Shown here: in pieces, positions 1-33,328 of the stretch | How positions within the stretch are numbered: the first letter of the stretch is position 1 | Layout of the letters: every line of letters starts with the position of its first letter | IMG/VR virus record: IMGVR_UViG_3300012921_000006 | Location: 1-40,531 of that record | Origin: a virus | DNA length: 40,531 nucleotides | Strand: one strand, 5' to 3' | Position numbers and translations under genes: made by a program | Notes under the pieces: model-generated | Databases searched by the model: none | Seen by the model: the letters and a program-made list of their open reading frames with translations, nothing else | What the model was told of the DNA's origin: nothing

Positions 1-123
1 ATCGGTAATGGGAACAGATGCGGGGTGCGAATTGGATGCGGTTCGAATTGATTTGGATGCAGGCAGTGCCTAACGCCATGAAATCGATACAGTTTTTTTG
101 ATCAGTGGTGCCCAAGGTCGGAC
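1..123. repeat. Terminal direct repeat, left copy (identical to 40409..40531). Either an att-type junction or the overlap of a circular/concatemeric unit.
   Basis: Base-by-base comparison shows all 123 nt identical. The copy contains the last 73 nt of the integrase reading frame (TAA at 71..73) and a tRNA 3'-end-like 18-mer at 106..123. Confidence 0.9.
106..123 (-). other. tRNA 3'-end-like segment (acceptor 3' strand + discriminator + CCA); fragment only
   Basis: The minus strand reads GTCCGAC-CTTGGGC-A-CCA, i.e. T-stem 3' half, a 7-nt acceptor strand, discriminator and CCA. The sequence after 123 is not tRNA-like, so this is not a full gene. Confidence 0.3.
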
Positions 124-368
124 GCATGAAAGCGCCCATTTTTTCAGCATAATCCTCCGTAAATGGATGCAACCGCCCATTAACAGAATCAATGACTTAC
201 AAGGATTTGGAAGCGCCCGATCCGCCTTGTCTCGGGCCAGTCTGACCGAATGTCGCTTCCTGCCGTTGCAATGCGGTTTTTGATTATTTGATCAAGAAAC
301 GGCCGTGCTATCAGGGCGCGACGGAAAAAAATGAAGTACGGAATCGTACTTAAACCCTGTGAGGCAAA

Positions 369-602
369 ATGGGCAGATCAACGCGGGTTCGATCAATCGA
401 GGCTCTGGCAAGGGAACTTCAGGCGCAGATCACGGCAGGCGTTCTATCGGCCGAAATCGGCGATCAGATCGAGTTCAGCTTCGTCGTCCCTGCGTCCAAG
501 ACCTTCCCCAACGGCGGTGTGGTATGCAGCTTCAGAACGATGGCCGTATCCGCGCATCGACCGGGACAGGAAGGCAGCGATTTCCGGCTGACAATTTCTT
601 AG
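369..602 (+). CDS. hypothetical protein (77 aa)
   Basis: ORF with GTGAGG-like SD a few nt upstream. Third-position GC is only moderate. No recognisable motif. Confidence 0.3.
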   Translation: MGRSTRVRSIEALARELQAQITAGVLSAEIGDQIEFSFVVPASKTFPNGGVVCSFRTMAVSAHRPGQEGSDFRLTIS

Positions 603-624
603 CCCACCCACAGACATCGCCGCT

Positions 625-939
625 TTGATAAAAGAGCCAGCGTTCCTGTCGTTGACTCTTTCATGGGTCGAGTTTCAGGTGGGCACAGGACACGTGGCGA
701 GAGCGGCAAAATCTTCTGATGTTCGCGGACACTTCGAAGCCCTTGGCTACGATGTGAAGCTCTCCCGTGATGGGTTTGTCCAGATCCGACCAGCCGGTCA
801 GGTGCGCTGGCAAAGCGGACAGTGGGTCCGCGACTACATGGTCACAGATCAAGGACAGGTGTTCCTGGTCAACGTGAACCCAAGCCATCAACCACCTCTG
901 CGCGGATGGTCGGCCATTGTTCACGCTATCCTCAGCTGA
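625..939 (+). CDS. hypothetical protein (104 aa, TTG start)
   Basis: ORF with G-rich first codon positions. It is preferred over the antisense ORF 661..1077, which would run into the bioY start. Confidence 0.35.
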   Translation: MIKEPAFLSLTLSWVEFQVGTGHVARAAKSSDVRGHFEALGYDVKLSRDGFVQIRPAGQVRWQSGQWVRDYMVTDQGQVFLVNVNPSHQPPLRGWSAIVHAILS

Positions 940-1015
940 TCGATAGAATTCGTTCTGCTTGTCTGGGACTACGGAACAGCCTACGACCAACTGGTCCTTG
1001 AAACTGGAGCCAGCC

Positions 1016-1558
1016 ATGGAACGCAGCCTGTCACACATCGCCTTGTTCGCCGCACTGATCGCGGTCCTGGGCTTCATTCCTCAGGTCATGCTCCCCTTTG
1101 GTGTACCGATCACCGCGCAGAGCCTTGGCATCATGCTCTGCGGCACCGTGCTTGGTGCAAAGCGCGGGGCCCTGGCGGTCATGCTGTTCCTTCTGCTTGT
1201 AGCCCTCGGGCTGCCGTTGCTGTCCGGTGGCCGCGGCGGTCTTGGCGTTTTTGCATCGCCGACCGTCGGCTTCTTGATTGGCTTTCCAGTGGCCGCGTTC
1301 ATTGCGGGCATGATCACCGAGACTGTGGAGTTTCCCATCGGCTGGGCGGCAGGGATCGGCGCATTCGTCGGCGGGGTGGTCGTGCTCTATGCGTTTGGGG
1401 TTACGGGTTTGGCGTTCATGCTCGACAAGACACTTGGTGAAGCAGCGTTGCTGGTCATGGCTTTCGTGCCGGGGGATCTGATCAAGGTTGTCCTTGCCGG
1501 GCTCATCACGCAAACGCTGGCGAGGATGCGCCCCGGACTTCTTCCGTCTCGCAACTGA
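1016..1558 (+). CDS. bioY: BioY-family biotin transporter (ECF S-component type), solitary
   Basis: 180 aa and almost entirely hydrophobic helices. BioY-type signature around GVPITAQSLGIMLCGTVLGAKRG. GGAG SD lies 6 nt before ATG 1016; the ORF-table start at 959 is an upstream TTG. Confidence 0.85.
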   Translation: MERSLSHIALFAALIAVLGFIPQVMLPFGVPITAQSLGIMLCGTVLGAKRGALAVMLFLLLVALGLPLLSGGRGGLGVFASPTVGFLIGFPVAAFIAGMITETVEFPIGWAAGIGAFVGGVVVLYAFGVTGLAFMLDKTLGEAALLVMAFVPGDLIKVVLAGLITQTLARMRPGLLPSRN

Positions 1559-1757
1559 CGAAAAGCAAGTCCCGGTCCCTCCAGGAGATGTGGGCCGGGC
1601 CGCTGCCGTCAATCTTCAAAGCACTCAACCAATCAGGGCGTGCGTGAAGCCTTGCGGCTCCGGCTCTGGGTTCACCCCCAGCCCAACCAGAGTGTTGCAA
1701 AGACCTCTTGTGTCGGCAAGAGCGCAAATTTGCACAGGTGGATGGCAGCGTCAGGCC

Positions 1758-2135
1758 TCAATGGAAGCTGGGACTATGACGTGCCATCAGGTCTGCACAG
1801 ACTTGCCGCCTCTCCTCCTGGTCGTCCAGACAGACATACCCGACCTCGGCAGCCTCAGCGGCGATGAACGACCAAAAGCGGCGATGCCCGCCATGGCCAG
1901 AACCGATATCGCTGTCGATGTTGTCCGTTTCACTGACGAACAACATCTCCCCATATCCTCTGGCGGCCTGGGCATCAGTCCGTGGCTGGACCAGCACGAC
2001 ATATACCCCAGGCATCTTGGGTAACGACTGTCCGAACTTGCCGATCTTGAGATCGACGCTCCCGCTGTCGCCAATGGGCACGCGCCGGTAACGTGGCGTT
2101 GGGGTCAATCTCTTCTCCGAAAGGGCAGCAGGCAA
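1758..2135 (-). CDS. hypothetical protein (125 aa)
   Basis: Longest sensible ORF in the 1560..2200 interval; overlapping plus-strand ORFs are Arg/Pro-rich junk. A faint GIY-YIG-like pattern (PGVYVV ... LFVSETDNI) is not strong enough to call. Confidence 0.4.
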   Translation of the reverse strand: MPAALSEKRLTPTPRYRRVPIGDSGSVDLKIGKFGQSLPKMPGVYVVLVQPRTDAQAARGYGEMLFVSETDNIDSDIGSGHGGHRRFWSFIAAEAAEVGYVCLDDQEERRQVCADLMARHSPSFH

Positions 2136-2354
2136 AGAGGCGACACATTCGAAAACTATGATATGCTACAAAAGACGGCATTTAGCCGCAGAGCTTTAAC
2201 GATTTGCTGCGCTACACAGACCCATCCCTATTGAGCTCAACACCCAGACTTTTGACCGCTAAGACTCTTCTGGGGCTATCCGTTATAGTTTGGTTAGCCG
2301 TCGATCGTCGACGTGGGTCCTGGCCGTCAGACATTGGCAGCCCGAGGAATGAAA

Positions 2355-2738
2355 ATGCCGCGCCGTATCGTCTTGTTCGCTGGAATACTGCTGGCAACGG
2401 CGACTTCGGTCTATGCCGTGCGGCCGACTGCCAACCCCCTCAACGCCTTTGAAGTTGACATGGAGGCCGCCGACCTCTGTCACGGCCTGGCGACCGACGC
2501 TGTCCGCGGGAAGAGCGTGCTGCAGGTGGTTCGGGAAAAGGTGAAAACCTCCCGTAGCCGTGAGGCGGAGCGGACCGTTGGGTTGGTTGTCCAGACAGCG
2601 GATGGAGGAGGCGATCGGCAAGACTTCCGGGTAACGTGTCTTGCCACATGGACAGAGAGCGGGATGATGCTGATCGATCTCGACGTCGATCAACTGCCCG
2701 TCTTCCATCGAGGCGTGAAGCTCGACGCTGTTCGATAG
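2355..2738 (+). CDS. exported hypothetical protein (signal peptide)
   Basis: N-terminus MPRRIVLFAGILLATATSVYA-V looks like a Sec signal. GAGGA SD lies 6 nt upstream of ATG 2355. In-frame ATGs also occur at 2349 and 2313. Confidence 0.55.
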   Translation: MPRRIVLFAGILLATATSVYAVRPTANPLNAFEVDMEAADLCHGLATDAVRGKSVLQVVREKVKTSRSREAERTVGLVVQTADGGGDRQDFRVTCLATWTESGMMLIDLDVDQLPVFHRGVKLDAVR

Positions 2739-2750
2739 GACGACGACACC

Positions 2751-2918
2751 CTACTTCCGCTCATCCTCCGGCAGCCGCTCCGGCACCTCGATGCCATGCG
2801 CGACCAACCACTCCCTGATCTCGCCCCACAGGTCCTGCGGGCCGAACTGGCGATAGCCCATGACGTTCTCAAGCTTGCGGCGAAGGTCGGGCGGAATGGT
2901 CTGGGGCCAGTTGGGCAT
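2751..2918 (-). CDS. small hypothetical protein (55 aa)
   Basis: Very high third-position GC. AGGA SD lies about 8 nt before ATG 2918. The ORF-table start 2984 adds an implausible Cys/Arg-rich leader. Confidence 0.5.
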   Translation of the reverse strand: MPNWPQTIPPDLRRKLENVMGYRQFGPQDLWGEIREWLVAHGIEVPERLPEDERK

Positions 2919-3031
2919 GGGGCGGTTCCTGAGAACAAGCTTGACGAGTCGCGAGCGAATGGCGCAGGACCGGCATGTCAACACATTGTTGACGTAAGAA
3001 GTCTAGGATTCCGCCGTTAAGGGATTACTTT

Positions 3032-3280
3032 ATGATTGAGGTCGAAGGTGTTTCTGATGTCATCCGAGAGTTGCGGATATGGTGGATAAACAAAGGTATT
3101 TCGGCTTACTCGCTTGCGTTCTTCATCATCGTCACCGCTGCGATATGGAAGGCACCAGAGATCATTCGCGCCCTCAATGAGCGAAAAAAGATCGATCAAG
3201 AGAACCTCAGGCGTGCTAGCCTGATAGCGAACAAGATTGAAAAAGAGCGGAGCCGGAGAGGAAGGAGGACGAAGGAATGA
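3032..3280 (+). CDS. small membrane protein (1 TM + basic coiled C-terminus)
   Basis: TM segment ISAYSLAFFIIVTAAIW followed by a KKIDQENLRRASLIANKIEKERSRRGRR tail. Visibly AT-richer than the surroundings. Its stop overlaps the next start (ATGATG at 3277). Confidence 0.55.
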   Translation: MIEVEGVSDVIRELRIWWINKGISAYSLAFFIIVTAAIWKAPEIIRALNERKKIDQENLRRASLIANKIEKERSRRGRRTKE

Positions 3281-3783
3281 TGTACTATCTCAGCGCCACT
3301 ATCTTGTCTTTCCTCGCTGTACTCGGAGGCTTTTTGGCACTCCGGATAAAGTCGACCAACGACAAACTGTATGCGATCGGGGCAAAGCAGTTCTACGACA
3401 GTGTCGACAGCATTCTTCAAACACCACGAGAGCTGCCAGACGGGATGCTTGTGCTGATTGCAGACATGAACAGCTCGCTGAACTCAAGACTGAGCCCGTT
3501 TGCCTTCTACGGCGTTCTGAAAGGGGCAAACAAAAGAAAGCACGGCGAGCGACCCAAGTTGGCTTTCGAGAAAAGGGATCTGCGACCGGAGGTCGAGGCC
3601 CTTATGAATGAAGCCTTTGTCGGATGGATTACGGCATTGCGTTACAAGTCGGTCTTGGCTGGCATAGGCATAGAACAACAACTGCGCGCTACAAGAGTGA
3701 AGAGCGGAAGCATTTCTGAGCTTCCTGATCGGTCGGCAGCAATCGAGCTTCATACATATCTTAACTCGCGGGCGGCGGCTTAG
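3277..3783 (+). CDS. membrane-anchored hypothetical protein (168 aa)
   Basis: N-terminal TM YYLSATILSFLAVLGGFLAL. Translationally coupled to 3032..3280 and followed directly by an intrinsic terminator. Confidence 0.6.
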   Translation: MMYYLSATILSFLAVLGGFLALRIKSTNDKLYAIGAKQFYDSVDSILQTPRELPDGMLVLIADMNSSLNSRLSPFAFYGVLKGANKRKHGERPKLAFEKRDLRPEVEALMNEAFVGWITALRYKSVLAGIGIEQQLRATRVKSGSISELPDRSAAIELHTYLNSRAAA

Positions 3784-3786
3784 TTT

Positions 3787-3811
3787 GGCCGGGCGGCGCC
3801 CGGCCTTTTTT
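3787..3811 (+). terminator. Rho-independent terminator
   Basis: GGCCGGGC-GGC-GCCCGGCC perfect 8-bp GC stem followed by TTTTTT, 4 nt after the stop at 3783. Confidence 0.65.
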
Positions 3812-3996
3812 GTGTGCGCCTGCCACCCCACCACCATCCGCGCCCGCGCCTGATCGGCCAGATCCTTTTCGATCGGCCGCCTACCCGTTCTCAGTGTCCA
3901 GAAAATTCATGATCCAGCCCTGCACGCAGCCCTTGGCTAACGCCCTGCTGCAGCATATCTGCGCATGGACCACGGGGACGACAACTGGACGGCTAA

Positions 3997-4266
3997 ATGA
4001 TTGAAGTGAAGGCCTTAATCTGGACAACGCGCAAGTTCGACAACGGCGCTGAAGTCTTCTACCTGACCTGCGCATACACCCCGTTCGGCGTGATCATCAT
4101 TCACTCACTTGCTGGAGCGAAGTACGCGTTTTCCTACGGCCCATCGGAAAAGCCGATCGGACAATATCCGAATGAAGCGACGGCGATCGCTGCGGCTGAG
4201 GAAGATTACCGATCGAAGGTCATCTCGGCCGTGTCCAGCGTTAGCGAAAAAGCAACTCGGACCTGA
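3997..4266 (+). CDS. hypothetical protein; small domain paralogous to the middle of 38353..38901
   Basis: Shared pattern with the 38353 gene: VKAL[IV]W ... Y.I.I ... A.AAA..DY....I.A. Confidence 0.5.
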   Translation: MIEVKALIWTTRKFDNGAEVFYLTCAYTPFGVIIIHSLAGAKYAFSYGPSEKPIGQYPNEATAIAAAEEDYRSKVISAVSSVSEKATRT

Positions 4267-4356
4267 GCGCTCCCCGCAGTGGCGAACAAGCAACGAGTCT
4301 AAGGTCGCTGGGCGCGAGACGCATTTATCATTTCGAGACGAGCTTGGCTGAGGCGC

Positions 4357-4557
4357 ATGGTCTTGAGACTTTCTCACCGCGATTTGCTTGGACATGACAT
4401 GGACATTGCACGTTGGTTTCTTGCATTCACTGAGGCCCGACTGCGTGCTCTGGAAAAGGAGCTTCTTTCAGCCAGTGCGTCCGATCTGCTTGTCCTAGCC
4501 ATTGCCGGTGTTCTGGCCATGCTCATTTCTGTTTACCTGCAAGCTCCTCAATCATAG
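4357..4557 (+). CDS. small hypothetical membrane protein
   Basis: ORF with C-terminal hydrophobic stretch LLVLAIAGVLAMLISVYL. No clear SD; alternative ATG at 4399. Confidence 0.3.
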   Translation: MVLRLSHRDLLGHDMDIARWFLAFTEARLRALEKELLSASASDLLVLAIAGVLAMLISVYLQAPQS

Positions 4558-4568
4558 AGTTCCCGTGT

Positions 4569-4883
4569 TCACGCAGGAACCCGCAGGCTCCGCCGCACGG
4601 TGATGTTCCCCTCCCACACCGTGCGGGGAGCCTGCTCGGACATCGTGACCCTCACCTGCACGGTATAGACGCCCTCATCGAGGTCATCGGAGCCGAACTG
4701 CACCGCGATCTTGTCCGCGGCCGTGATGGCGCAGCTGTCGGCCTGCACGATGACGCCCGCCGCCTCTGCCAGAGCAACAGCCGTGCCGCCAACGATCGAC
4801 GTGACCGGGCTACCTGCAGGGAAAACCACCGTCACCTCGAAGGGCGCGCCGTCCAGCTCGTATGTGTTCAGGTTGTCAGTCAC
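4569..4883 (-). CDS. last gene of the late operon; fibre-associated hypothetical protein (104 aa)
   Basis: GTG start overlaps the stop of the fibre gene (GTGA). High coding GC3. Confidence 0.7.
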   Translation of the reverse strand: MTDNLNTYELDGAPFEVTVVFPAGSPVTSIVGGTAVALAEAAGVIVQADSCAITAADKIAVQFGSDDLDEGVYTVQVRVTMSEQAPRTVWEGNITVRRSLRVPA

Positions 4884-6964
4884 GCCACCCTCCAGGTCGC
4901 CTCGATGTCAAAGTCCGGCCATTCACCGATGATGGTGAAGGCCCCATAGCTGCCAGATGCGGCCAGCACGGGCCAGCTGCCCTGCACGGTCATCGGGCCA
5001 TAACTGCCGCTGGCGGCCAAGACGGGCCAGGCGCCCTCGACGGTGAACTGCGGGATGAAGGCGGCAGGATCGGCCACCGTGCCGGCCGCGCTGCCACCGA
5101 TCGGCAGATCGCCATTCGCCGCGCCCGCGACCAGGACAGCCCCAGCCGCCGCGCCGGTGAGCAGCAGAACCCCAGAGGCCGCGCCAGAGACGCGCACGGC
5201 GCCCTGTGCTACCCCGGTGAGGTCAAGGGCGCCAGCCGCAGCGCCAGAGGCCCGCACAGCCCCGCTTGCGGCCCCGGTGATGGGCAGCGTCCCTGCGGCC
5301 TGCCCGGTGACCCTGACAGTGCCTTGCGCGGCCCCGGTGAGCGGCAAGGTGCCCGAGCCAGCCCCGGCAATCCGCACGGTGCCGCTTGCCGCGCCAGTGA
5401 GGGCCAGATCACCCGCTGCGCTGCCAGTGACCGGCAGAGTGCCCACCACGCCGCTCGCTTGGCCTGTGAGGTCGAGAGCGCCCGAGGCCTGACCCTGAAC
5501 CCTGACGGTGCCCGTAGCTGCGCCCGTGAGAGGCAGCGTTCCCGCCGAGGCCCCGACCGCCGGGTTGTCAGCATCAGCGCTGCCAGTCAGCGGCAGGGAG
5601 CCGGACGCTTCGCCAGTCACCCGCACCGCGCCCGTGGCCGCGCCTGTCAGCGCCAGAGCCCCGGTCGCCGTGCCCGCAACCCTGACCGTGCCCGTCGCCG
5701 ATCCTGTGAGGTCCAGCGTGCCCGATGCCGTGCCGGTGGCTGGCGCATTGCCAACCGTTCCGGCCGAAGATCCGGTCAGGGGCAGATCGCCCGCTGCGGC
5801 CCCGGCCACGCGGACCGTTCCAGTTGCCGCGCCCGTGAAGGCCAGGTCACCGCTGGCCTGACCAGCAACCCGCACCGTGCCTGTTGCCGACCCGGTGAGC
5901 GCAATGGTGCCCGTCGCGGTGCCTGCAACTCGGATTGCGCCAGCCGCCGCGCCGGTGATGTCCAGCGAGCCTGCTGCTGCGCCCGAGACACCGGAGGCCG
6001 CGCCATAGGGCACAAAGATGATGACCGTGCCGCGCCCGCCAGATGCGCCTGCGCCGTTCCGCGTGCCGCCGCCACCACCACCGAGGCCATCCGTGCCCGC
6101 TGTGGGCGCGGTCAGCGGGAACTCGCGCCCACCTGCCCCACCACCGCCTGCGCCACCCGCCCAGAGGTTGGAGCTGTCACCCGCACCGCCGCCACCGCCA
6201 TAGGTGACAGAGGAACCCGTGATCGACCGAGCGACACCCGCTGCGCCGGTCTGGCCCGTTGCCGCGGCATTCGCGCCGCCGCCGCCCCCTGCGATGCCAC
6301 CGGTGTTTCCCGGCCCGCCCGCATTGCCCTGCCCTGCGGTGCCCGTGCCGCCCGTGGTGACTTGCCCACCGCCACCGCCGCCGCCAGAGCCGCCTGCAAG
6401 GCCGTTGCCGGGAGTGGAGAAGTCCAGACCGCGCCCGCCGCCACCGCCGCCCACGGCAGCCGCCGGGGCATTGGTGCCCGTGATCGAGGAATTGCCGCCA
6501 TTCGCGCCAGGCTGCGAAAAGTCGATGCCGTTGTTCTGGACGCCGCCCGCGCCGCCGAGACCGACCGCGACGGTATAGCTTGATGCCGTGCCGATGAATG
6601 TGGAAGAGGTCAGTCCGCCGAGGACACCGCCAGCACCACCGCCGCCGCCCGGACTGCCGAACTCACCACCACCGCCACCGCCACCGCCCGCGACAAGCAG
6701 GTAGTAGATCGTCGCCCCTGCGACGGGCGTGAATGTGCCCGCGCCAGACCATTGAAACACCTGCCCAAGCTGGCCGTCGAACGTGACGTTCTCGGTGATC
6801 GTCGGGCTGCCGGTGGTGGCCGTGATCTGGCTGGATGATCCGCCGCCGCCACCTGACGGCACTCCGAAGAACTCATCCCGCAGCAATGCTGCGACTGAGG
6901 TGGACCCAAGCCAGAGCGCGCTTCCCCCACGGATGCGGGGGAAATTGCGCAGGTATCTAGCCAT
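4880..6964 (-). CDS. glycine-rich tail fibre / receptor-binding protein with tandem 20-aa repeats
   Basis: 694 aa. Residues about 85-320 carry poly-Gly blocks (YYLLVAGGGGGGGG ... RGTVIIFVPYG), as in phage glycine-rich fibre domains. Residues about 325-630 are about 15 copies of the 20-aa unit LTGAATGTVRVAGxASGxLx. The C-terminus has 2 copies of WPVLAASGSYG. Confidence 0.85.
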   Translation of the reverse strand: MARYLRNFPRIRGGSALWLGSTSVAALLRDEFFGVPSGGGGGSSSQITATTGSPTITENVTFDGQLGQVFQWSGAGTFTPVAGATIYYLLVAGGGGGGGGEFGSPGGGGGAGGVLGGLTSSTFIGTASSYTVAVGLGGAGGVQNNGIDFSQPGANGGNSSITGTNAPAAAVGGGGGGRGLDFSTPGNGLAGGSGGGGGGGQVTTGGTGTAGQGNAGGPGNTGGIAGGGGGANAAATGQTGAAGVARSITGSSVTYGGGGGAGDSSNLWAGGAGGGGAGGREFPLTAPTAGTDGLGGGGGGTRNGAGASGGRGTVIIFVPYGAASGVSGAAAGSLDITGAAAGAIRVAGTATGTIALTGSATGTVRVAGQASGDLAFTGAATGTVRVAGAAAGDLPLTGSSAGTVGNAPATGTASGTLDLTGSATGTVRVAGTATGALALTGAATGAVRVTGEASGSLPLTGSADADNPAVGASAGTLPLTGAATGTVRVQGQASGALDLTGQASGVVGTLPVTGSAAGDLALTGAASGTVRIAGAGSGTLPLTGAAQGTVRVTGQAAGTLPITGAASGAVRASGAAAGALDLTGVAQGAVRVSGAASGVLLLTGAAAGAVLVAGAANGDLPIGGSAAGTVADPAAFIPQFTVEGAWPVLAASGSYGPMTVQGSWPVLAASGSYGAFTIIGEWPDFDIEATWRVA
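4928..5035 (-). repeat. Two tandem 54-bp coding repeats at the fibre C-terminus
   Basis: GAWPVLAASGSYGPMTVQ / GSWPVLAASGSYGAFTII. Confidence 0.7.
5075..5992 (-). repeat. Imperfect tandem 60-bp (20-codon) coding repeats inside the fibre gene
   Basis: Periodic peptide VRVAG-x-A(S/T)G-x-L-x-LTG-x-A-x-G-T, read directly from the translation. Confidence 0.8.
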
Positions 6965-28442: not shown

Positions 28443-29486
28443 TCACGCGGCCTCCAGCTTCTTCATGATGCGGTGGACGGTGGACCAGTTGACCCCGATT
28501 ACCGCAGCGATCTCGCGCACCGTCATCTTCCGCGCCCGCATCGCCTTGACCTGCCGAACGAAGGCGGGGTTCCCGACATGGCCGCGCGTGGAGTTGTTCA
28601 GGCCGAGCTGGAGGATGTCATCGGTGATCGTAGACGATCCGACACCCAGCGCCTCGGCGATCTGGCGCACGGTCTTGCCCTCGGCCCGCATGACCACGAC
28701 CTTCGCCCGCCGCTCGGCCGCAATGGCCTTCATCTCCTCCAGCCGACGCTTCGGCGGCGGGTGGTTGCTCTTCTTCGGCGTCGTGATCAGTGCCGGGTAA
28801 TCCGCGCGCTTGAGCCCCAGGCGCTTGAGGTCAACGTGGACCTCGTTCCGCGTTGACCCGACCTCCTGCTGAATGCGCGGTGCCGTCCAGCCCTGCTTGA
28901 ATAGCTCGGCCACCTTCTCGCGCCGAGCGGCGAGGGCTTCGCGCTTCTGCGCTGCCTCGACCTTCTTCTGACGCCGAACCTGAGCAACCGCGCCCTTCTC
29001 CGGCACCCGATATGGAATCTGCCGCAACCGGCAATAGTTCTGGGCCGCGTTCCATGAAATGCCGAGGAAGTCGGCGATTTGCCTGACGGTCTTGTCACCC
29101 TTGCCGGCAAAGCCCATCGTGCGCTCCAGCCGCTCACGCGCAGCCACCATGCGAGGATCATCGGGCGACCGAGGCCCCAGCTTACGCTTGGGCTTGTAGG
29201 CTTTGACCGCAGGCGGCGCGTCAGCCTCTTCCTTGGCCTTCGCCACCGCCAGCCGCCGCTTCCGGGCCGCCTCGCGCACCCCGGCGCCGATCATCGCCTT
29301 GACGGTGTCCCGCCCGCTCTTGCCATCGACCTGCCGCAGGCCGATGCGCTCGACATATTCATATCCCGGCAGCCCGGACACCCCGCGCGGAACCACCTGC
29401 ACCACGTCCGGCTTGCACTGGACGCCATACCGCGCGGCCACCTCTGCGGCGATGCGGGCCTTCTGATCTTCGCTGATTGTCTGCAT
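28443..29486 (-). CDS. DNA-binding protein with four tandem helix-turn-helix units
   Basis: Four HTH-like units: KTVRQIADFLGISWNAAQNY, WTAPRIQQEVGSTRNEVHVDL, KTVRQIAEALGVGSSTITDDI, MTVREIAAVIGVNWSTVHRIM. ATG 29486 has a GGTGAG SD 9 nt upstream; ATG 29495 has none. Confidence 0.75.
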   Translation of the reverse strand: MQTISEDQKARIAAEVAARYGVQCKPDVVQVVPRGVSGLPGYEYVERIGLRQVDGKSGRDTVKAMIGAGVREAARKRRLAVAKAKEEADAPPAVKAYKPKRKLGPRSPDDPRMVAARERLERTMGFAGKGDKTVRQIADFLGISWNAAQNYCRLRQIPYRVPEKGAVAQVRRQKKVEAAQKREALAARREKVAELFKQGWTAPRIQQEVGSTRNEVHVDLKRLGLKRADYPALITTPKKSNHPPPKRRLEEMKAIAAERRAKVVVMRAEGKTVRQIAEALGVGSSTITDDILQLGLNNSTRGHVGNPAFVRQVKAMRARKMTVREIAAVIGVNWSTVHRIMKKLEAA

Positions 29487-29521
29487 GGGTCTCATCTCAC
29501 CGGGGGCTTCTGGGGACTGGT

Positions 29522-29556
29522 GGGGCCGCCCGCGCCCCCAGCAATCGGGCGGCCCC
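29522..29556 (-). promoter_or_regulatory. perfect 11-bp GC stem-loop in the 5' leader of the 4xHTH gene
   Basis: GGGGCCGCCCG-N13-CGGGCGGCCCC, about 30 nt upstream of the start codon. Confidence 0.3.
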
Positions 29557-29598
29557 GTGGGCGCAGCGGGAGGAGGTGCCGCGCCATTCGATGAAATA

Positions 29599-29622
29599 CC
29601 CCGGCGGTGGTGGTCGCCGGGG
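29599..29622 (-). terminator. candidate intra-operon terminator (tR1-like)
   Basis: CCCCGGCG-N8-CGCCGGGG. On the minus strand it is followed by TATTTCATC, 50 nt after the stop of 29673..30008. Confidence 0.35.
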
Positions 29623-29672
29623 TCAGTTGCCCGCGCTGGGGAACCGTAGAAACGGGCGCGCGGGGAGGCGTG

Positions 29673-30008
29673 TCATGCGGCCATCGCCTCCAGAAGGCGC
29701 TGCCGAAGATCGGGAAAGCGGAGGATCATCGCCACGGCGCGCGGGCCGCTGGGGCAGTTCAGCCCGGCCAGCCAGTTGCGGGCAGTCCTCTCGTCCGTGT
29801 CGAAGAAGAACGCGATGTGCTCCTTGTCGCGGAAGTGCTCCTTCAGCCACCGCGCGACGACCATCGGGAACAGCCGCTGCAGCTTCGGCACATCGGAGAG
29901 GATTCCGGCATCGGCCCCGGCTGAGATACCGGGCGACGTTTCCGGCCAGGCCATGTCATTGGCCGGGTTCGGAGGTGCCGAATATGCAATCACTCGATGA
30001 CGGGGCAT
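29673..30008 (-). CDS. hypothetical early protein (111 aa), possible HTH
   Basis: Its start overlaps the Cro-like stop by 1 nt. The C-terminal half (DERTARNWLAGLNCPSGPRAVAMIL) looks HTH-like. Confidence 0.6.
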   Translation of the reverse strand: MPRHRVIAYSAPPNPANDMAWPETSPGISAGADAGILSDVPKLQRLFPMVVARWLKEHFRDKEHIAFFFDTDERTARNWLAGLNCPSGPRAVAMILRFPDLRQRLLEAMAA

Positions 30009-30211
30009 CAGGACGCCCTCGCCTGTTGTTCAACCCACGACGAAGCCGGAACGGCACCGTTCGTGGCGCGCTCGATCTTCGCGGCAAGCTCAAGGCTTGG
30101 CCGCTTCCCGCGCTTGAGACGCGAAACGGTGGCCTGCTTCACGCCGATCTCGGCGGCGAAGGCCTCCTGCGTCTTCTTGTGAGCTTCAAGGTAGGTTGCT
30201 AGGTTCATCAT
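30008..30211 (-). CDS. Cro-like XRE-family HTH regulator
   Basis: MMNLATYLEAHKKTQEAFAAEIGVKQATVSRLKRGKRPS is a classical HTH. The gene is divergent from the repressor. Tandem ATGs at 30211 and 30208. Confidence 0.75.
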   Translation of the reverse strand: MMNLATYLEAHKKTQEAFAAEIGVKQATVSRLKRGKRPSLELAAKIERATNGAVPASSWVEQQARAS

Positions 30212-30218
30212 GTCGACA

Positions 30219-30247
30219 GATATACCCATAGAGTATATACCCGTCAA
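30219..30247 (-). promoter_or_regulatory. early promoter (PR-like): -35 TTGACG (30242..30247), 17-nt spacer, -10 TATATC (30219..30224)
   Basis: Read on the minus strand. The same 20-nt block AATACTTGACGGGTATATAC and -10 hexamer recur at 32643..32676 on the plus strand. Confidence 0.6.
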
Positions 30248-30253
30248 GTATTC
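30220..30253. promoter_or_regulatory. two overlapping 19-bp operator-like palindromes (30220..30238, 30235..30253)
   Basis: ATATAC-CCATAGA-GTATAT and ATATAC-CCGTCAA-GTATTC. They cover the -10 and -35 of the promoter above. Confidence 0.6.
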
Positions 30254-30305
30254 ACATTCCCCAGGCGTATTTGATCCGCCGGAGCAGTGCGGGCATCATG
30301 CCAGC

Positions 30306-30617
30306 ATGAACAACGTCGCAAACCTCCGAGCAGCCCGGAAGCTCAAGCAGAACCAGCTCGCCGAGTTGGCCGATGTCGCGCAACCCCCCATCTCGCGCCT
30401 AGAGAACGGCGACGAGGGCGTGACGCTCAAGGTTGTGAACCGCGTGGCCACAGCCCTGAATGTTCCTGTGTGGGAGCTTTTCGCGGATCCTAGAACCGAG
30501 GCAGAGCGGCTACTGCTGGACGTGTTCCGCAGACTTCCGCCGGATCGTCAGGCGGGATGGATCGATCTCGCGCAATCAGTTCTAGATCAGCCCGAACCAG
30601 ATCAAGGAAAGCCATGA
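30306..30617 (+). CDS. CI-like XRE-family repressor
   Basis: MNNVANLRAARKLKQNQLAELADVAQPPISRLENGDEGVTLKVVNRVATALNV is an HTH_3-type domain. The gene is divergent from the Cro-like gene across the operator region. The upstream ATG 30210 would read through the operators. Confidence 0.8.
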   Translation: MNNVANLRAARKLKQNQLAELADVAQPPISRLENGDEGVTLKVVNRVATALNVPVWELFADPRTEAERLLLDVFRRLPPDRQAGWIDLAQSVLDQPEPDQGKP

Positions 30618-30807
30618 GCTGCCGATCATTCATCGCGCGCAACTTGGCTTGGAAAACGGCTTCATTCATCAATCACCCCCATTGAGGCAATTCACTCATA
30701 CCAGAACGCACCGTGAACACCAAGCCGCCAAGTCTTGTAGCAGAGCGGACTTATCCACAGAAGGTCACAAGATATTGAATCAAACCGATTCGAAATCAAG
30801 ATTTGGG

Positions 30808-31092
30808 ATGTTTTCGGCGCTGACAGTGATCGCCTTGGCCGCCTGCACCCCGACGCAGGACACGCAAGGCCAGGTGGTCGACATCACGGACCACATGGTG
30901 GTTATCAACGGCGCTTTCGACATGAATATTGCCAACGCTGGCCCGGCCAAGCCGACCGCCGCGATGGTGGCGCAGGCCGAGGCGATCTGCCCCGGCGCGC
31001 AATACCTGACCGCAGAGCCGAGCAACCGCAGCGAATATGACTGGACCTTCAACTACAAGTTCCGCTGCCCGACCGGGCCGAAGCGAGGATAG
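30808..31092 (+). CDS. lipoprotein (94 aa)
   Basis: MFSALTVIALAAC has a lipobox (LAAC). The mature part has 3 further Cys. Located downstream of the repressor on the same strand. Confidence 0.65.
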   Translation: MFSALTVIALAACTPTQDTQGQVVDITDHMVVINGAFDMNIANAGPAKPTAAMVAQAEAICPGAQYLTAEPSNRSEYDWTFNYKFRCPTGPKRG

Positions 31093-31095
31093 GAC

Positions 31096-31578
31096 ATGGC
31101 AACCTGCAAAACCTGCGGCAACAAAATCCCGATTTTCCAGCAGCATGGAGAGCTGTGTTACGACTGCTTCTACAAGGAGGATGCCGCGCGGTTGAAGGCA
31201 GAGCGTGAGGCCGAGGAAAGTGCCGCAAAAGAGACGCGCGCAGCCATAGACGCCGTGATGATCACCACAGAAACTGCAGCGCCGGACCTCAAGATCGCCG
31301 CACGGCTCGGCATCGTGACAGCCGAGTGCGCCTTCGGGATGAACCTGTTCAAAGACATCTTCGCCGTTGGCCGAGACATCTTCGGCGGGCGGGCGGCGTC
31401 GATCCAGAACGCCCTGAAGGACGCCCGCAACACCGCACTCGACGAGCTTCGGCTGGAGGCATCGAAGCTGGGCGCCAATGCCGTGATCGCCGTGGATCTC
31501 GACTATTCCGAGATCTCCGGCGGCGGGAAGTCGATGCTCTTCCTGGTGGCGACGGGGACGGCGGTGAGGTTGGGGTGA
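31096..31578 (+). CDS. zinc-ribbon + YbjQ/UPF0145-like domain protein
   Basis: N-terminus [21 protein letters not shown] is a CxxC-N13-CxxC ribbon, followed by a charged linker. The C-terminal part is [80 protein letters not shown], resembling YbjQ_1. GAGGA SD lies 6 nt upstream. Confidence 0.8.
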
Positions 31579-31579
31579 G

Positions 31580-32113
31580 ATGGCGACCTGGCTTGAGCAG
31601 TGGCTGTCCGGCCTTGGCGCCGACAAGGCGGACTTGGCAATCACCATCTCCGTGTTTAGCCTTGCTGTTTCGGCTGCTTCCGCCTTCTACACTCGCGCTT
31701 TGGCCAAGATCGAACGCGAGAAACTCTACCGGAAACCTCTCGTGCTTGAGCCAAGATTCACGGAAATGAAGGACTGGCCCAACTGCTACGAATGTGGTTA
31801 CCGAGTCAGGAACCTTGAGCCGGTTTCCGCCATCGTGCTTACAGCAAAATCAAAAAGGCGGCGGCTGCAGCTCGTCAGTTTCGATGACGCCCATGTCCCG
31901 GATGGCGCGGGCGGCCTGAAGCTGAAGGAAAAGTTTCCGAACGAACTGGCAGGCCAAGAAATCAAGATTGATCGGCCCGTGGGCGGATGCGACGACATGC
32001 AGTCAGTGGTCAGGGCCGGTCCAGTAATCTACATCCGCTTCTATGCAAACGGCTACGCTAAGCCGTCCGACATCAAGGTAGAGACGGTTTGGGCGGACGG
32101 CGCTAAGCGCTAG
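31580..32113 (+). CDS. membrane-anchored hypothetical protein (177 aa)
   Basis: N-terminal TM LAITISVFSLAVSAASAFY. ATG lies 1 nt after the preceding stop. AT-richer composition. Confidence 0.65.
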   Translation: MATWLEQWLSGLGADKADLAITISVFSLAVSAASAFYTRALAKIEREKLYRKPLVLEPRFTEMKDWPNCYECGYRVRNLEPVSAIVLTAKSKRRRLQLVSFDDAHVPDGAGGLKLKEKFPNELAGQEIKIDRPVGGCDDMQSVVRAGPVIYIRFYANGYAKPSDIKVETVWADGAKR

Positions 32114-32565
32114 GACAGCGCGACAGCAACGCTGAGCAGAGCCAGCACCATACCGACGATGTTGAGCCACATGATGCGCCTGATGATGGTCAGCCGCGCC
32201 CGAGATTCAATCACGTTAGAAGCTTGCTGGCATCGGCAACATTGAACGTCACAAGCGCCGCCTCCGGGCGGCGTTTTCGTTTTTTCGCTTTCCATCCTCG
32301 CCAGATGTCCAAAGACCAGCCCGAGCAGATCGCCGGACGCATCCCGCCAGCGCGACCACACGTCATCATCTGCGATGACCGCCGCAACGCGCTTGCCCAG
32401 CTCGGTGACCGAATAGACGCCCTCGTCCTCCGACAGCAGGGCGAGGTCATTCAGGAGCAGCATGTGATGATGCCGCTCCGTATCGCGCTCAATGCTCTCG
32501 GTGCCAGGCTGACCATCAGCCGCCAGTAGCAGCAGCTCGCGCATCAAATCCGGGTTTTGCTTCAT
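32110..32565 (-). CDS. DUF2513-like winged-helix N-domain with Cys-rich region and C-terminal TM anchor
   Basis: MKQNPDLMRELLLLAADG resembles DUF2513 N-termini. The C-terminus is CDVQCCRCQ ... IMWLNIVGMVLALLSVAVAL. GGAGG SD lies 8 nt before ATG 32565; the ORF-table ATG 32589 has none. Confidence 0.65.
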   Translation of the reverse strand: MKQNPDLMRELLLLAADGQPGTESIERDTERHHHMLLLNDLALLSEDEGVYSVTELGKRVAAVIADDDVWSRWRDASGDLLGLVFGHLARMESEKTKTPPGGGACDVQCCRCQQASNVIESRARLTIIRRIMWLNIVGMVLALLSVAVALS

Positions 32566-32622
32566 CCCCACACCCTCCATCCGCCCCATGCGGCTGAGGT
32601 GATTCTTACCCGTGCCGCTCGC

Positions 32623-32675
32623 ATATACCCATAGCGCATTTTAATACTTGACGGGTATATACCTGTAGCGTATAT
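32623..32675. promoter_or_regulatory. three operator-like palindromes (32623..32641, 32642..32660, 32657..32675)
   Basis: ATATAC-CCATAGC-GCATTT; TAATAC-TTGACGG-GTATAT, which is an 18/19 reverse-complement match of 30235..30253; and ATATAC-CTGTAGC-GTATAT, which has perfect half-sites. Confidence 0.6.
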
Positions 32676-32676
32676 C
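32648..32676 (+). promoter_or_regulatory. early promoter (PL-like): -35 TTGACG (32648..32653), 17-nt spacer, -10 TATATC (32671..32676)
   Basis: Consensus-like hexamers. Drives the plus-strand operon starting at ATG 32703 (SD GGGAGAA at 32691..32697). Confidence 0.6.
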
Positions 32677-32702
32677 TCTCCCCATCAACCGGGAGAACCG
32701 CA

Positions 32703-32984
32703 ATGACGAAACTGCCCCCGATCCTCTACTTCGCGCTTGGCAACTACGGGGCCGCGCTCAACACCACCGCCTGCGACATCGGCGCACTCGATCCGGTCGA
32801 GAACCTGGACGACGCAGCCGACGCGCTGATCGAGGTTGAGACCAGCACGGGCCTCAACGGTCGCGTTCTGGCGATCACCTTCTGCCTCACCAGCAACATG
32901 CCCGAGGCGGTCAGCGACGTGACCGAGGAATGCGTGGCCATCGTCCAGCGCCGCATGCAGGCGCGCGGCATCGCTGCGGAGTGA
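32703..32984 (+). CDS. hypothetical early protein (93 aa)
   Basis: First ORF after the promoter, with an SD present. Confidence 0.65.
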   Translation: MTKLPPILYFALGNYGAALNTTACDIGALDPVENLDDAADALIEVETSTGLNGRVLAITFCLTSNMPEAVSDVTEECVAIVQRRMQARGIAAE

Positions 32985-33328
32985 TGCCGATGACCGCCCC
33001 CGCCGCCATCCATTGCCTCACCCCCGACGCAGCCTTTGCCCTTGCCCGCCGTGTGCTGGAATCCGGCGCATATGACGCCGAGGCCATTGCTGCCGCGCTC
33101 GACGTTCTGGACGCCAGCACCAACCCGACCGACCGCGCCACCGTGCGCTGGTGCCGCGCCTATGTGCAGCCGGTGGCCGATATGGCTCAGGTCGATCAGG
33201 ACGATCTGGTCGCGGCCACGGTCAAGAAGCTGCACTTCACGCTCTACAGCCTTGCGGTGATCGGCGGGATTTTCGGCGGCGTCTTCATGGAGGCGGTGAT
33301 CACCGCTTGGAATGGGGGTGCGATGTGA
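32984..33328 (+). CDS. hypothetical protein with C-terminal TM (114 aa)
   Basis: TGATG overlap with the previous gene. C-terminal LYSLAVIGGIFGGVFMEAVITAW. Confidence 0.6.
   Translation: MPMTAPAAIHCLTPDAAFALARRVLESGAYDAEAIAAALDVLDASTNPTDRATVRWCRAYVQPVADMAQVDQDDLVAATVKKLHFTLYSLAVIGGIFGGVFMEAVITAWNGGAM

Follow-up and report, generated by a model that had tools for sequence, protein, structure and literature searches.

Apparently unrelated accessory genes behind the repressor of a temperate phage, and a repressor-coupled zinc-ribbon–YbjQ family in prophages

Three tightly packed genes lie directly behind the repressor gene of a viral DNA record (IMG/VR record IMGVR_UViG_3300012921_000006). The question is whether they form one exclusion or defence system or a set of separate additions to the phage. 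The whole stretch of 40,531 nucleotides (nt), here called the window, was analysed. In lambdoid phages, the exclusion genes rexAB and sieB lie beside the repressor gene. An earlier note on this DNA, made from the sequence alone, had read the three genes as one repressor-linked module in the position equivalent to that of rexAB. The position stood; the single three-gene system did not. By sequence comparison, the three genes appear to be unrelated add-ons, each mobile independently. The main result is a rule that concerns the second gene: in many prophages of Rhodobacterales, and with repressors of three types, the gene after the repressor encodes a YbjQ protein whose N-terminal module is variable.

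The repressor gene and the genes of the cargo slot behind it are as follows (lengths in amino acids, aa; domain matches with E values; HTH, helix-turn-helix):

30306..30617, plus strand: XRE-type repressor in the CI position, 103 aa (HTH_3 E=4.9e-9, HTH_31, phrog_3 'transcriptional repressor')
30775..31092, plus strand: small lipoprotein with an LAAC lipobox, start at TTG 30775 (105 aa) or ATG 30808 (94 aa)
31096..31578, plus strand: zinc ribbon, charged linker and YbjQ/UPF0145 domain, 160 aa (Pfam, PHROG and PDB matches)
31580..32113, plus strand: N-terminally anchored membrane protein, 177 aa (one helix at ~residues 19-37 by hydropathy)
32110..32589, minus strand: convergent gene, DUF2513-like N-terminal domain and C-terminal membrane anchor, start at ATG 32589 (159 aa) or 32565 (151 aa)

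One system or separate genes

The three same-strand genes described in the earlier note are all present directly behind the CI-like repressor. The LAAC lipobox was seen in the open reading frame (ORF) which had been placed at 30808..31092, and the N-terminal membrane segment of the third gene product (31580..32113) was found as one helix. The sequence shows intergenic gaps of 3 and 1 nt and places the GAGGA 8 nt ahead of the second ATG. The convergent gene 32110..32589 (-) is an addition to that description. It lies inside the same bracket of outward promoters.

YbjQ-gene loci were collected from viral contigs (14) and species-representative genomes (80). With four GenBank phage loci, this gave 98 loci, most of them collected via the YbjQ gene. 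A tblastn search of these loci with the lipoprotein, the membrane protein and the convergent gene product gave no match. Conservation of the trio as a unit beside repressors had been proposed as a test. It failed: except for identical copies of this phage, no locus carried two of the three families together. Identical copies of the gene arrangement were present on two further contigs. Co-occurrence of the components across independent genomes, the mark of a single three-gene operonic system, was not found. Each of the three families, and the convergent gene as well, occurs without the others in other phages, and each of the three recurs behind prophage repressors, within the immunity region, in other, unrelated phages.

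In one multi-component defence or exclusion system, the lipoprotein, a cytoplasmic sensor and a membrane effector would cooperate like RexA and RexB. The tight packing on one strand, the single downstream terminator and the identical arrangement on the two further contigs would fit such a system, and a lipoprotein gene adjoins some other YbjQ-domain genes (L016-L018). Those lipoproteins, however, gave no tblastn match to that of the window, and only one of them matches a Pfam family (DUF2846); the lipoprotein of the window matches none. Moreover, the genes on either side of the nearest YbjQ homologue are unrelated, and its homology to the window stops at the stop codon. As no other locus pairs any two of the three genes, the reading as one system is not supported. 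We regard it as very improbable and rank it below the other alternatives. Tight packing in a phage cargo slot should not be taken as evidence for one system. On balance, we consider it probable that the slot behind the repressor has taken up accessory functions of one gene each (morons), acquired independently and now stacked, and no multi-protein system.

The repressor-coupled zinc-ribbon–YbjQ family

The earlier note had recognised a CxxC-N13-CxxC motif and a YbjQ-like domain in the second gene (31096..31578), and the profile check bore this out. The C-terminal 105 residues are a clear member of YbjQ/UPF0145 (YbjQ_1, PF01906): residues 54-158 match positions 1-102 of the 103 profile positions (E=3.9e-27; 95.3 bits, gathering cutoff 23). 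The PDB YbjQ entries 1y2i, 1vr4 and 2gtc matched the protein at ~1e-19, and these solved homologues have five chains per entry. In the ribbon, the cysteines are spaced C4-x2-C7, 13 residues, C21-x2-C24, and the two CxxC pairs are conserved across the family alignment (A1). The match to the DUF4428 zinc ribbon (PF14471) stayed below the gathering score (18.6 bits, cutoff 27.8). No membrane segment was found in the protein.

Cellular YbjQ/UPF0145 proteins are of ~105-115 aa and have a single domain, whereas the window protein adds the N-terminal ribbon and a charged linker. Its full length, ribbon included, matched phrog_15412, which is annotated as of unknown function (E=7.2e-52; residues 1-159 on profile positions 1-155 of 159). 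This subfamily, again unlike the cellular proteins, is prophage-borne and repressor-coupled.

The zinc-ribbon form was found in 41 loci, and 37 of them had a usable upstream ORF on the same strand. This ORF was a repressor homologue in 28 of the 37, a count that includes duplicates and corresponds to ~20 distinct prophages; the gaps were mostly 2-50 nt. Repressors were confirmed by Pfam (Peptidase_S24 with or without HTH_3, or HTH_3 alone) or by the GenBank annotation 'CI-like repressor'. Most of the repressor-coupled loci belong to Rhodobacterales prophages of the Mu-like kind, where the gene is the terminal one. In the cultured Mu-like phages RS1 and RC1, the terminal gene at the genome end is a 54%-identical homologue, 17 nt past the annotated 'CI-like repressor'. 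These two phages, with two records each, gave the only full-length matches among 50,697 phage records. YbjQ variants in which a PDZ domain replaces the ribbon sit after repressors as well, and one of these repressors is of the Phage_CI_repr type. Coupling of the YbjQ family spans three repressor types: HTH+S24, XRE and Phage_CI_repr. In many loci, the gap of 2-17 nt leaves no room for an own promoter, so co-transcription with the repressor would be the natural reading. Zinc-ribbon–YbjQ is a previously undescribed repressor-coupled prophage family.

The closest YbjQ homologue is that of Tabrizicola sp. M-4 (L019), with 74% identity. The final 90 residues are identical in the two proteins, and the last 100 codons differ by 34 synonymous and 3 nonsynonymous changes. 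The N-terminal ribbon and linker are only ~30% identical. This distribution of changes points to strong purifying selection on the YbjQ domain while the ribbon and linker diverge. The DNA homology ends exactly at the YbjQ stop codon. After it, the Tabrizicola slot holds a HicA/DUF1902 toxin–antitoxin-like pair where the window has the membrane protein. The zinc-ribbon–YbjQ gene forms a discrete mobile module, one of its domains conserved and the other variable.

A lipoprotein gene in the vicinity of a YbjQ gene was seen repeatedly. In two loci (L016, 4698-5833; L017, 4722-5856), PDZ–YbjQ genes lie after repressors, and overlapping lipoprotein genes, one of them DUF2846, come next. In a third (L018, 3598-5138), an S24 repressor is accompanied by a lipoprotein and by what is left of a truncated YbjQ gene. 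This loose neighbourhood is a recurring one, and in E. coli ybjQ lies beside ybjP; the lipoproteins are unrelated to that of the window.

Mae-JY02 and Mel-JY03, two phages deposited under Microcystis, share the operators, their repressor is 79% identical, and a different gene occupies the slot. The YbjQ gene is therefore accessory and no part of the switch core. An accessory role in the lysis–lysogeny decision, for example in repressor stability, cleavage or induction, would make zinc-ribbon–YbjQ a regulator and not an anti-phage protein. The extremely tight coupling to repressor genes in many prophages would agree with this, as would its recurrence across three repressor families, and the variable N-terminal domain could fit a partner protein. 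Yet the phages with the 79%-identical repressor and the same operators manage without the gene, and the full-length matches among the phage records are confined to RS1 and RC1. The gene is coupled both to S24 repressors and to repressors lacking a cleavage domain, which argues against a role in one induction mechanism. We consider a regulatory role quite unlikely.

The zinc-ribbon–YbjQ and PDZ–YbjQ proteins may instead represent an unrecognised single-gene immunity or exclusion factor that is co-expressed with the repressor. The YbjQ ring would then be the effector and the fast-evolving N-terminal domain the sensor. This proposal is tentative, and we hold it to be less likely than not. YbjQ/UPF0145 has three solved structures and no known role, and the proposal, if true, would provide the first functional handle on it. 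Since RS1, RC1 and sequenced isolates such as Tabrizicola sp. M-4 and Rhodobacter capsulatus SP18 carry the YbjQ gene, its function is directly testable.

The immunity region and the other slot genes

The slot belongs to the immunity region of a temperate, lambdoid-type phage from a high-GC alphaproteobacterium. The window as a whole is a lambdoid-type temperate phage or prophage with 64% GC. Its leftward genes include capsid, portal, terminase and primase-helicase genes, and its rightward genes RecE-like, RecT, HNH and integrase genes. Besides the genes given above, the region contains the following elements (OR and OL, right and left operator regions; SD, Shine-Dalgarno sequence):

30008..30247, minus strand: Cro-like HTH gene (HTH_3 E=7e-12; weak P22_Cro/YdaS matches)
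30210..30273, no strand assigned: OR-like operator/promoter arm with two 17-nt operator-like units and a leftward promoter (TTGACG, 17 nt, TATATC)
30490..30727, minus strand: conserved element with -35 TTGGTG, extended -10 TGGTATGAG, leader, SD GGGGG and ATG 30669
32253..32286, plus strand: intrinsic-terminator-like hairpin with T-run (-23.1 kcal/mol, z=-2.97), inside the coding sequence of the convergent gene
32622..32685, no strand assigned: OL-like operator/promoter arm, the mirror image of the OR-like arm, with a rightward promoter (TTGACG, 17 nt, TATATC)

The Cro-like gene and the XRE-type repressor gene diverge at ~30.2 kb. The former is the first gene of the leftward operon, which heads to the replication and late genes. 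Its start is placed at 30229 (73 aa) by gene callers, and its product is 72% identical to the 'Cro-like' protein of Mae-JY02. The XRE repressor has no S24 domain. It is 79% identical to the 'XRE family transcriptional regulator' of Mae-JY02 and Mel-JY03, and its length of 103 aa was also obtained in an independent gene call (L115).

The claim that two operator-controlled outward promoters bracket the genes was borne out. The two arms (30210-30273 and 32622-32685) form a 64-nt inverted repeat, and the 17-nt operator-like unit is present in four copies in them (repeat family D1, inverted repeat I1). The 15-mer TTGACGGGTATATAC occurs exactly twice in the 40.5-kb window, once per strand and facing outward; ~0.01 copies would be expected by chance. 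The promoter of the OL-like arm is directed at the early genes, which start at 32703. When 30195-30320 is compared with the reverse complement of 32575-32700, the mirror symmetry reaches ATG 32589 of the convergent gene, which aligns with the repressor ATG at 30306. Hence the convergent gene may use a promoter like that for repressor maintenance (PRM), under the same operators. The promoters named here are hexamers read by eye and rest on conservation. An Rfam scan of 29800-32900 gave only sub-threshold chance matches. The AT-richness noted earlier is real (GC of the cassette 0.595, elsewhere in the window 0.639), but it is modest.

The slot resembles lambda rexA-rexB and P22 sieB in its layout. 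As had been claimed, it holds the rexAB-equivalent position. The genes lie behind the repressor on the same strand, between OR and OL, that is, between outward promoters with common operators, and a terminator precedes the outward promoter. The cargo at this position also differs among related phages, as it does in lambda and P22. The differences are that there is no sequence relationship, that no RexB-like multi-pass channel is found in the window and that the window genes do not appear to form a functional pair or trio. Furthermore, the window has a convergent promoter and a small antisense ORF between repressor and cargo.

This minus-strand element was found in the window and also in L108, L112/L113, L019 and L111. 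Its promoter/SD/ATG block (~30669-30727) is invariant in an alignment of five phages with mutually non-homologous repressors (A4). The extended -10 reads TGGTATGAG in the window and TGCTATGGG in the alignment consensus. From ATG 30669, an ORF of 59 aa runs antisense to the repressor gene over its last ~128 nt, and equivalent antisense ORFs of 48-56 aa lie behind non-homologous repressors in other phages. The element may yield a small protein; alternatively, it may yield an antisense RNA that acts on the mRNA of the repressor. A conserved slot leader, CCACAGAAGGnCACAAGATnTTGA, is common to the window, L108, L105 and L019. As the cargo lies beyond that promoter, it may rely on signals in this leader.

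For the lipoprotein, TTG 30775 is the more likely start than ATG 30808, judged by sequence, because it gives 105 aa as in a homologue (P0005) and an n-region containing K/R; the conserved slot leader also suggests it. A candidate SD, GAAGG, lies ahead of it at 30760-30764. Seven homologue clusters were found. C13, C61 and C87 are invariant, and the lipobox cysteine is invariant across 8 lipoprotein homologues. No Pfam, PHROG or PADLOC match was obtained. Three long contigs with lipoprotein homologues were examined (L108, L111, L112), and in all of them the homologue is alone directly behind an HTH_3/XRE repressor. The repressor is divergent from a Cro-like gene there, and the YbjQ and membrane-protein genes are both absent. 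In Tabrizicola sp. M-4 (L019, 4940-5990), a remnant of the 5' end of the lipoprotein gene is fused upstream of the YbjQ gene.

The membrane protein belongs to an uncharacterised family. A word-indexed search found four clusters only, and a profile search found 111 representatives, nearly all of them single proteins of ~145-200 aa. Members are typically of ~165 aa and share the motifs RNLEPV and WxWADGQK. The structure model is of low confidence (predicted local distance difference test, pLDDT, 62) and shows a long helix followed by a beta-sandwich. The C-terminal domain, the predicted beta-sandwich, is probably cytoplasmic, since the positive residues come after the helix.

Homologues of the membrane protein sit in other contexts. 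One with 66% identity follows a different secreted protein, with no YbjQ gene between. In an unrelated phage (L099-L104), a homologue with 30% identity overlaps a Peptidase_S24 repressor gene at its stop codon. A scan of loci with a 10-sequence subset of the alignment found further members in the same direction as a repressor, among them these: one ~200 nt after an S24 repressor (L117), and one after an HTH_3 repressor with one small gene between (L119). A membrane protein that follows YbjQ in another locus (L013) was considered as a homologue and rejected, as the two did not align.

The convergent gene overlaps the last stop codon of the cassette by 4 nt. Its product is 59% identical to Pan4_41 of phage Pan4, which is likewise convergent inside the immunity region but lies behind two unrelated small genes. 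No Pfam match was obtained at E<=0.1. A weak pairwise match (E=4e-6) links the product to a Pfam-confirmed DUF2513 protein of L099, whose gene is convergent to the membrane-protein homologue, in the same relative position as the fourth gene of the window. A literature search for DUF2513 together with phage found nothing relevant. Rightward transcription of the immunity region probably stops at the hairpin at 32253-32286, short of the right operator arm. The KTPPGGG encoded at the hairpin is kept in Pan4_41, so hairpin and coding sequence coexist.

Expression and possible functions of the slot genes

The slot genes are likely expressed in lysogens. They would be transcribed from the repressor promoter, from a promoter in the slot leader or from both, and the plus-strand transcript would end at the 32253-32286 terminator. 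Each gene would act alone for the lysogen, most probably by excluding or aborting other phages, and they would do so in three cellular layers. The small lipoprotein, presumably containing disulfides, would mask a surface receptor in the manner of Llp or Cor. The membrane-anchored protein would block DNA entry at the inner membrane, as SieA or Imm does. The YbjQ protein would be cytoplasmic and probably pentameric like the solved YbjQ, and its variable zinc ribbon would bind a phage or host component.

Considering the position of the genes, exclusion or defence is the most likely role by analogy with rexAB, sieB, Llp/Cor, Ltp and the phage Fc02. The location is that of accessory genes of the rexAB/sieB type: behind the repressor, on the same strand and between repressor-controlled outward promoters. 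Llp (T5), Cor (phi80/N15) and Ltp (Streptococcus phage TP-J34) are superinfection-exclusion lipoproteins that mask receptors. The lipoprotein of the window is, as expected of this type, small and prophage-encoded with a lipobox signal peptide. Like them, it has conserved cysteines and lies in the lysogeny region, and in sister phages it stands alone behind the repressor. Unlike them, it has no sequence or fold similarity to any characterised member or solved structure.

In Fc02, a transposable phage of Pseudomonas, olg1 and gene 10 lie in the transcript of the repressor and have shown exclusion activity (PMC9936078). The accessory genes are located by the genome end of this Mu-like phage, which mirrors the place of zinc-ribbon–YbjQ in RS1, RC1 and related prophages. 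The Fc02 genes differ: they precede the repressor gene, they overlap or are much smaller, and their sequences are unrelated (PMC9936078).

Several results weigh against an exclusion role or against expression by read-through. The conserved convergent promoter between repressor gene and cassette could block read-through, and simple read-through from the repressor promoter is hence not a given. A sigma-70 consensus scan of 29500-33300 found no promoter. The earlier note's statement that no known defence system is matched was confirmed: at E<=0.1, none of the PADLOC-DB v2.0 models was hit by the lipoprotein, the YbjQ protein, the membrane protein or the convergent gene product. The lipoprotein model (pLDDT 77) had no PDB fold match at E<=0.001; its fold search gave one marginal, unnamed viral match (E=4.7e-3). 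No functional study of YbjQ, and nothing that connects YbjQ/UPF0145/DUF74 with phages, was found in the searchable literature. Finally, the YbjQ domain also occurs stand-alone, apparently in a housekeeping role, in Halomonas and E. coli, so the phage copy could serve host physiology and not defence.

The last point leads to the alternative that the slot genes are lysogenic-conversion or fitness factors outside phage conflict. YbjQ would supplement the UPF0145 protein of the host, and the lipoprotein and membrane proteins would alter the envelope. The stand-alone YbjQ of ~113 aa in Halomonas and relatives is the cellular form, and the YbjQ domain of the phage is 62-68% identical to the Halomonas proteins. 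In E. coli, ybjQ has the lipoprotein gene ybjP as a neighbour, and an N-acetylmuramoyl-L-alanine amidase gene, amiD, comes after it. In the literature, YbjQ turns up only in stress-related screens and proteomics lists. The prophage form, however, always has the extra, fast-diverging N-terminal domain, and the slot of a relative holds a toxin–antitoxin pair. Such positions in studied phages also typically hold exclusion genes, with rexAB and sieB as examples. The genes of Fc02 are a further case (PMC9936078). Altogether, we judge fitness factors of this kind to be unlikely.

Some searches on YbjQ gave no lead. The neighbourhoods of stand-alone YbjQ in Halomonas showed no consistent neighbours and no functional hint. 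An E. coli 'phage' match to UPF0145 was rejected because it is host flanking DNA (ybjP-ybjQ and the amidase gene) in a prophage record. A literature search for heavy-metal-binding with Mu-like phages found nothing relevant.

Independent single-gene accessory functions, most of all exclusion functions, stay the preferred reading of the slot. Genes adjacent to prophage repressors have proved to be a source of anti-phage functions; four uncharacterised candidates lie in the slot of the window.

Further observations concern the rest of the window. In the early leftward operon, 28443-29495 (-) encodes a 350-aa protein of repeated HTH units with many weak matches to HTH families; the relative L108 has a similar gene. 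The GC content of positions 1-4800 is lower and uneven (0.54-0.61) compared with the phage body, and this part may represent flanking host DNA or further cargo. The first large phage gene past the left end, 4880..6964 (-), encodes a glycine-rich domain (Gly_rich_2).

Three phage records have 75-78% DNA identity to parts of the window: Mae-JY02 and Mel-JY03, deposited as Microcystis phages, and Pan4, deposited as a Pseudanabaena phage (L003, L004 and L107; PP395635, PP395636 and ON968455). The other relatives of the window found here belong to Rhodobacterales. A GC content of 64% is much above that of cyanobacterial genomes such as Microcystis. With this GC content and the Rhodobacterales relatives, the cyanobacterial host assignment of Mae-JY02, Mel-JY03 and Pan4 looks doubtful.

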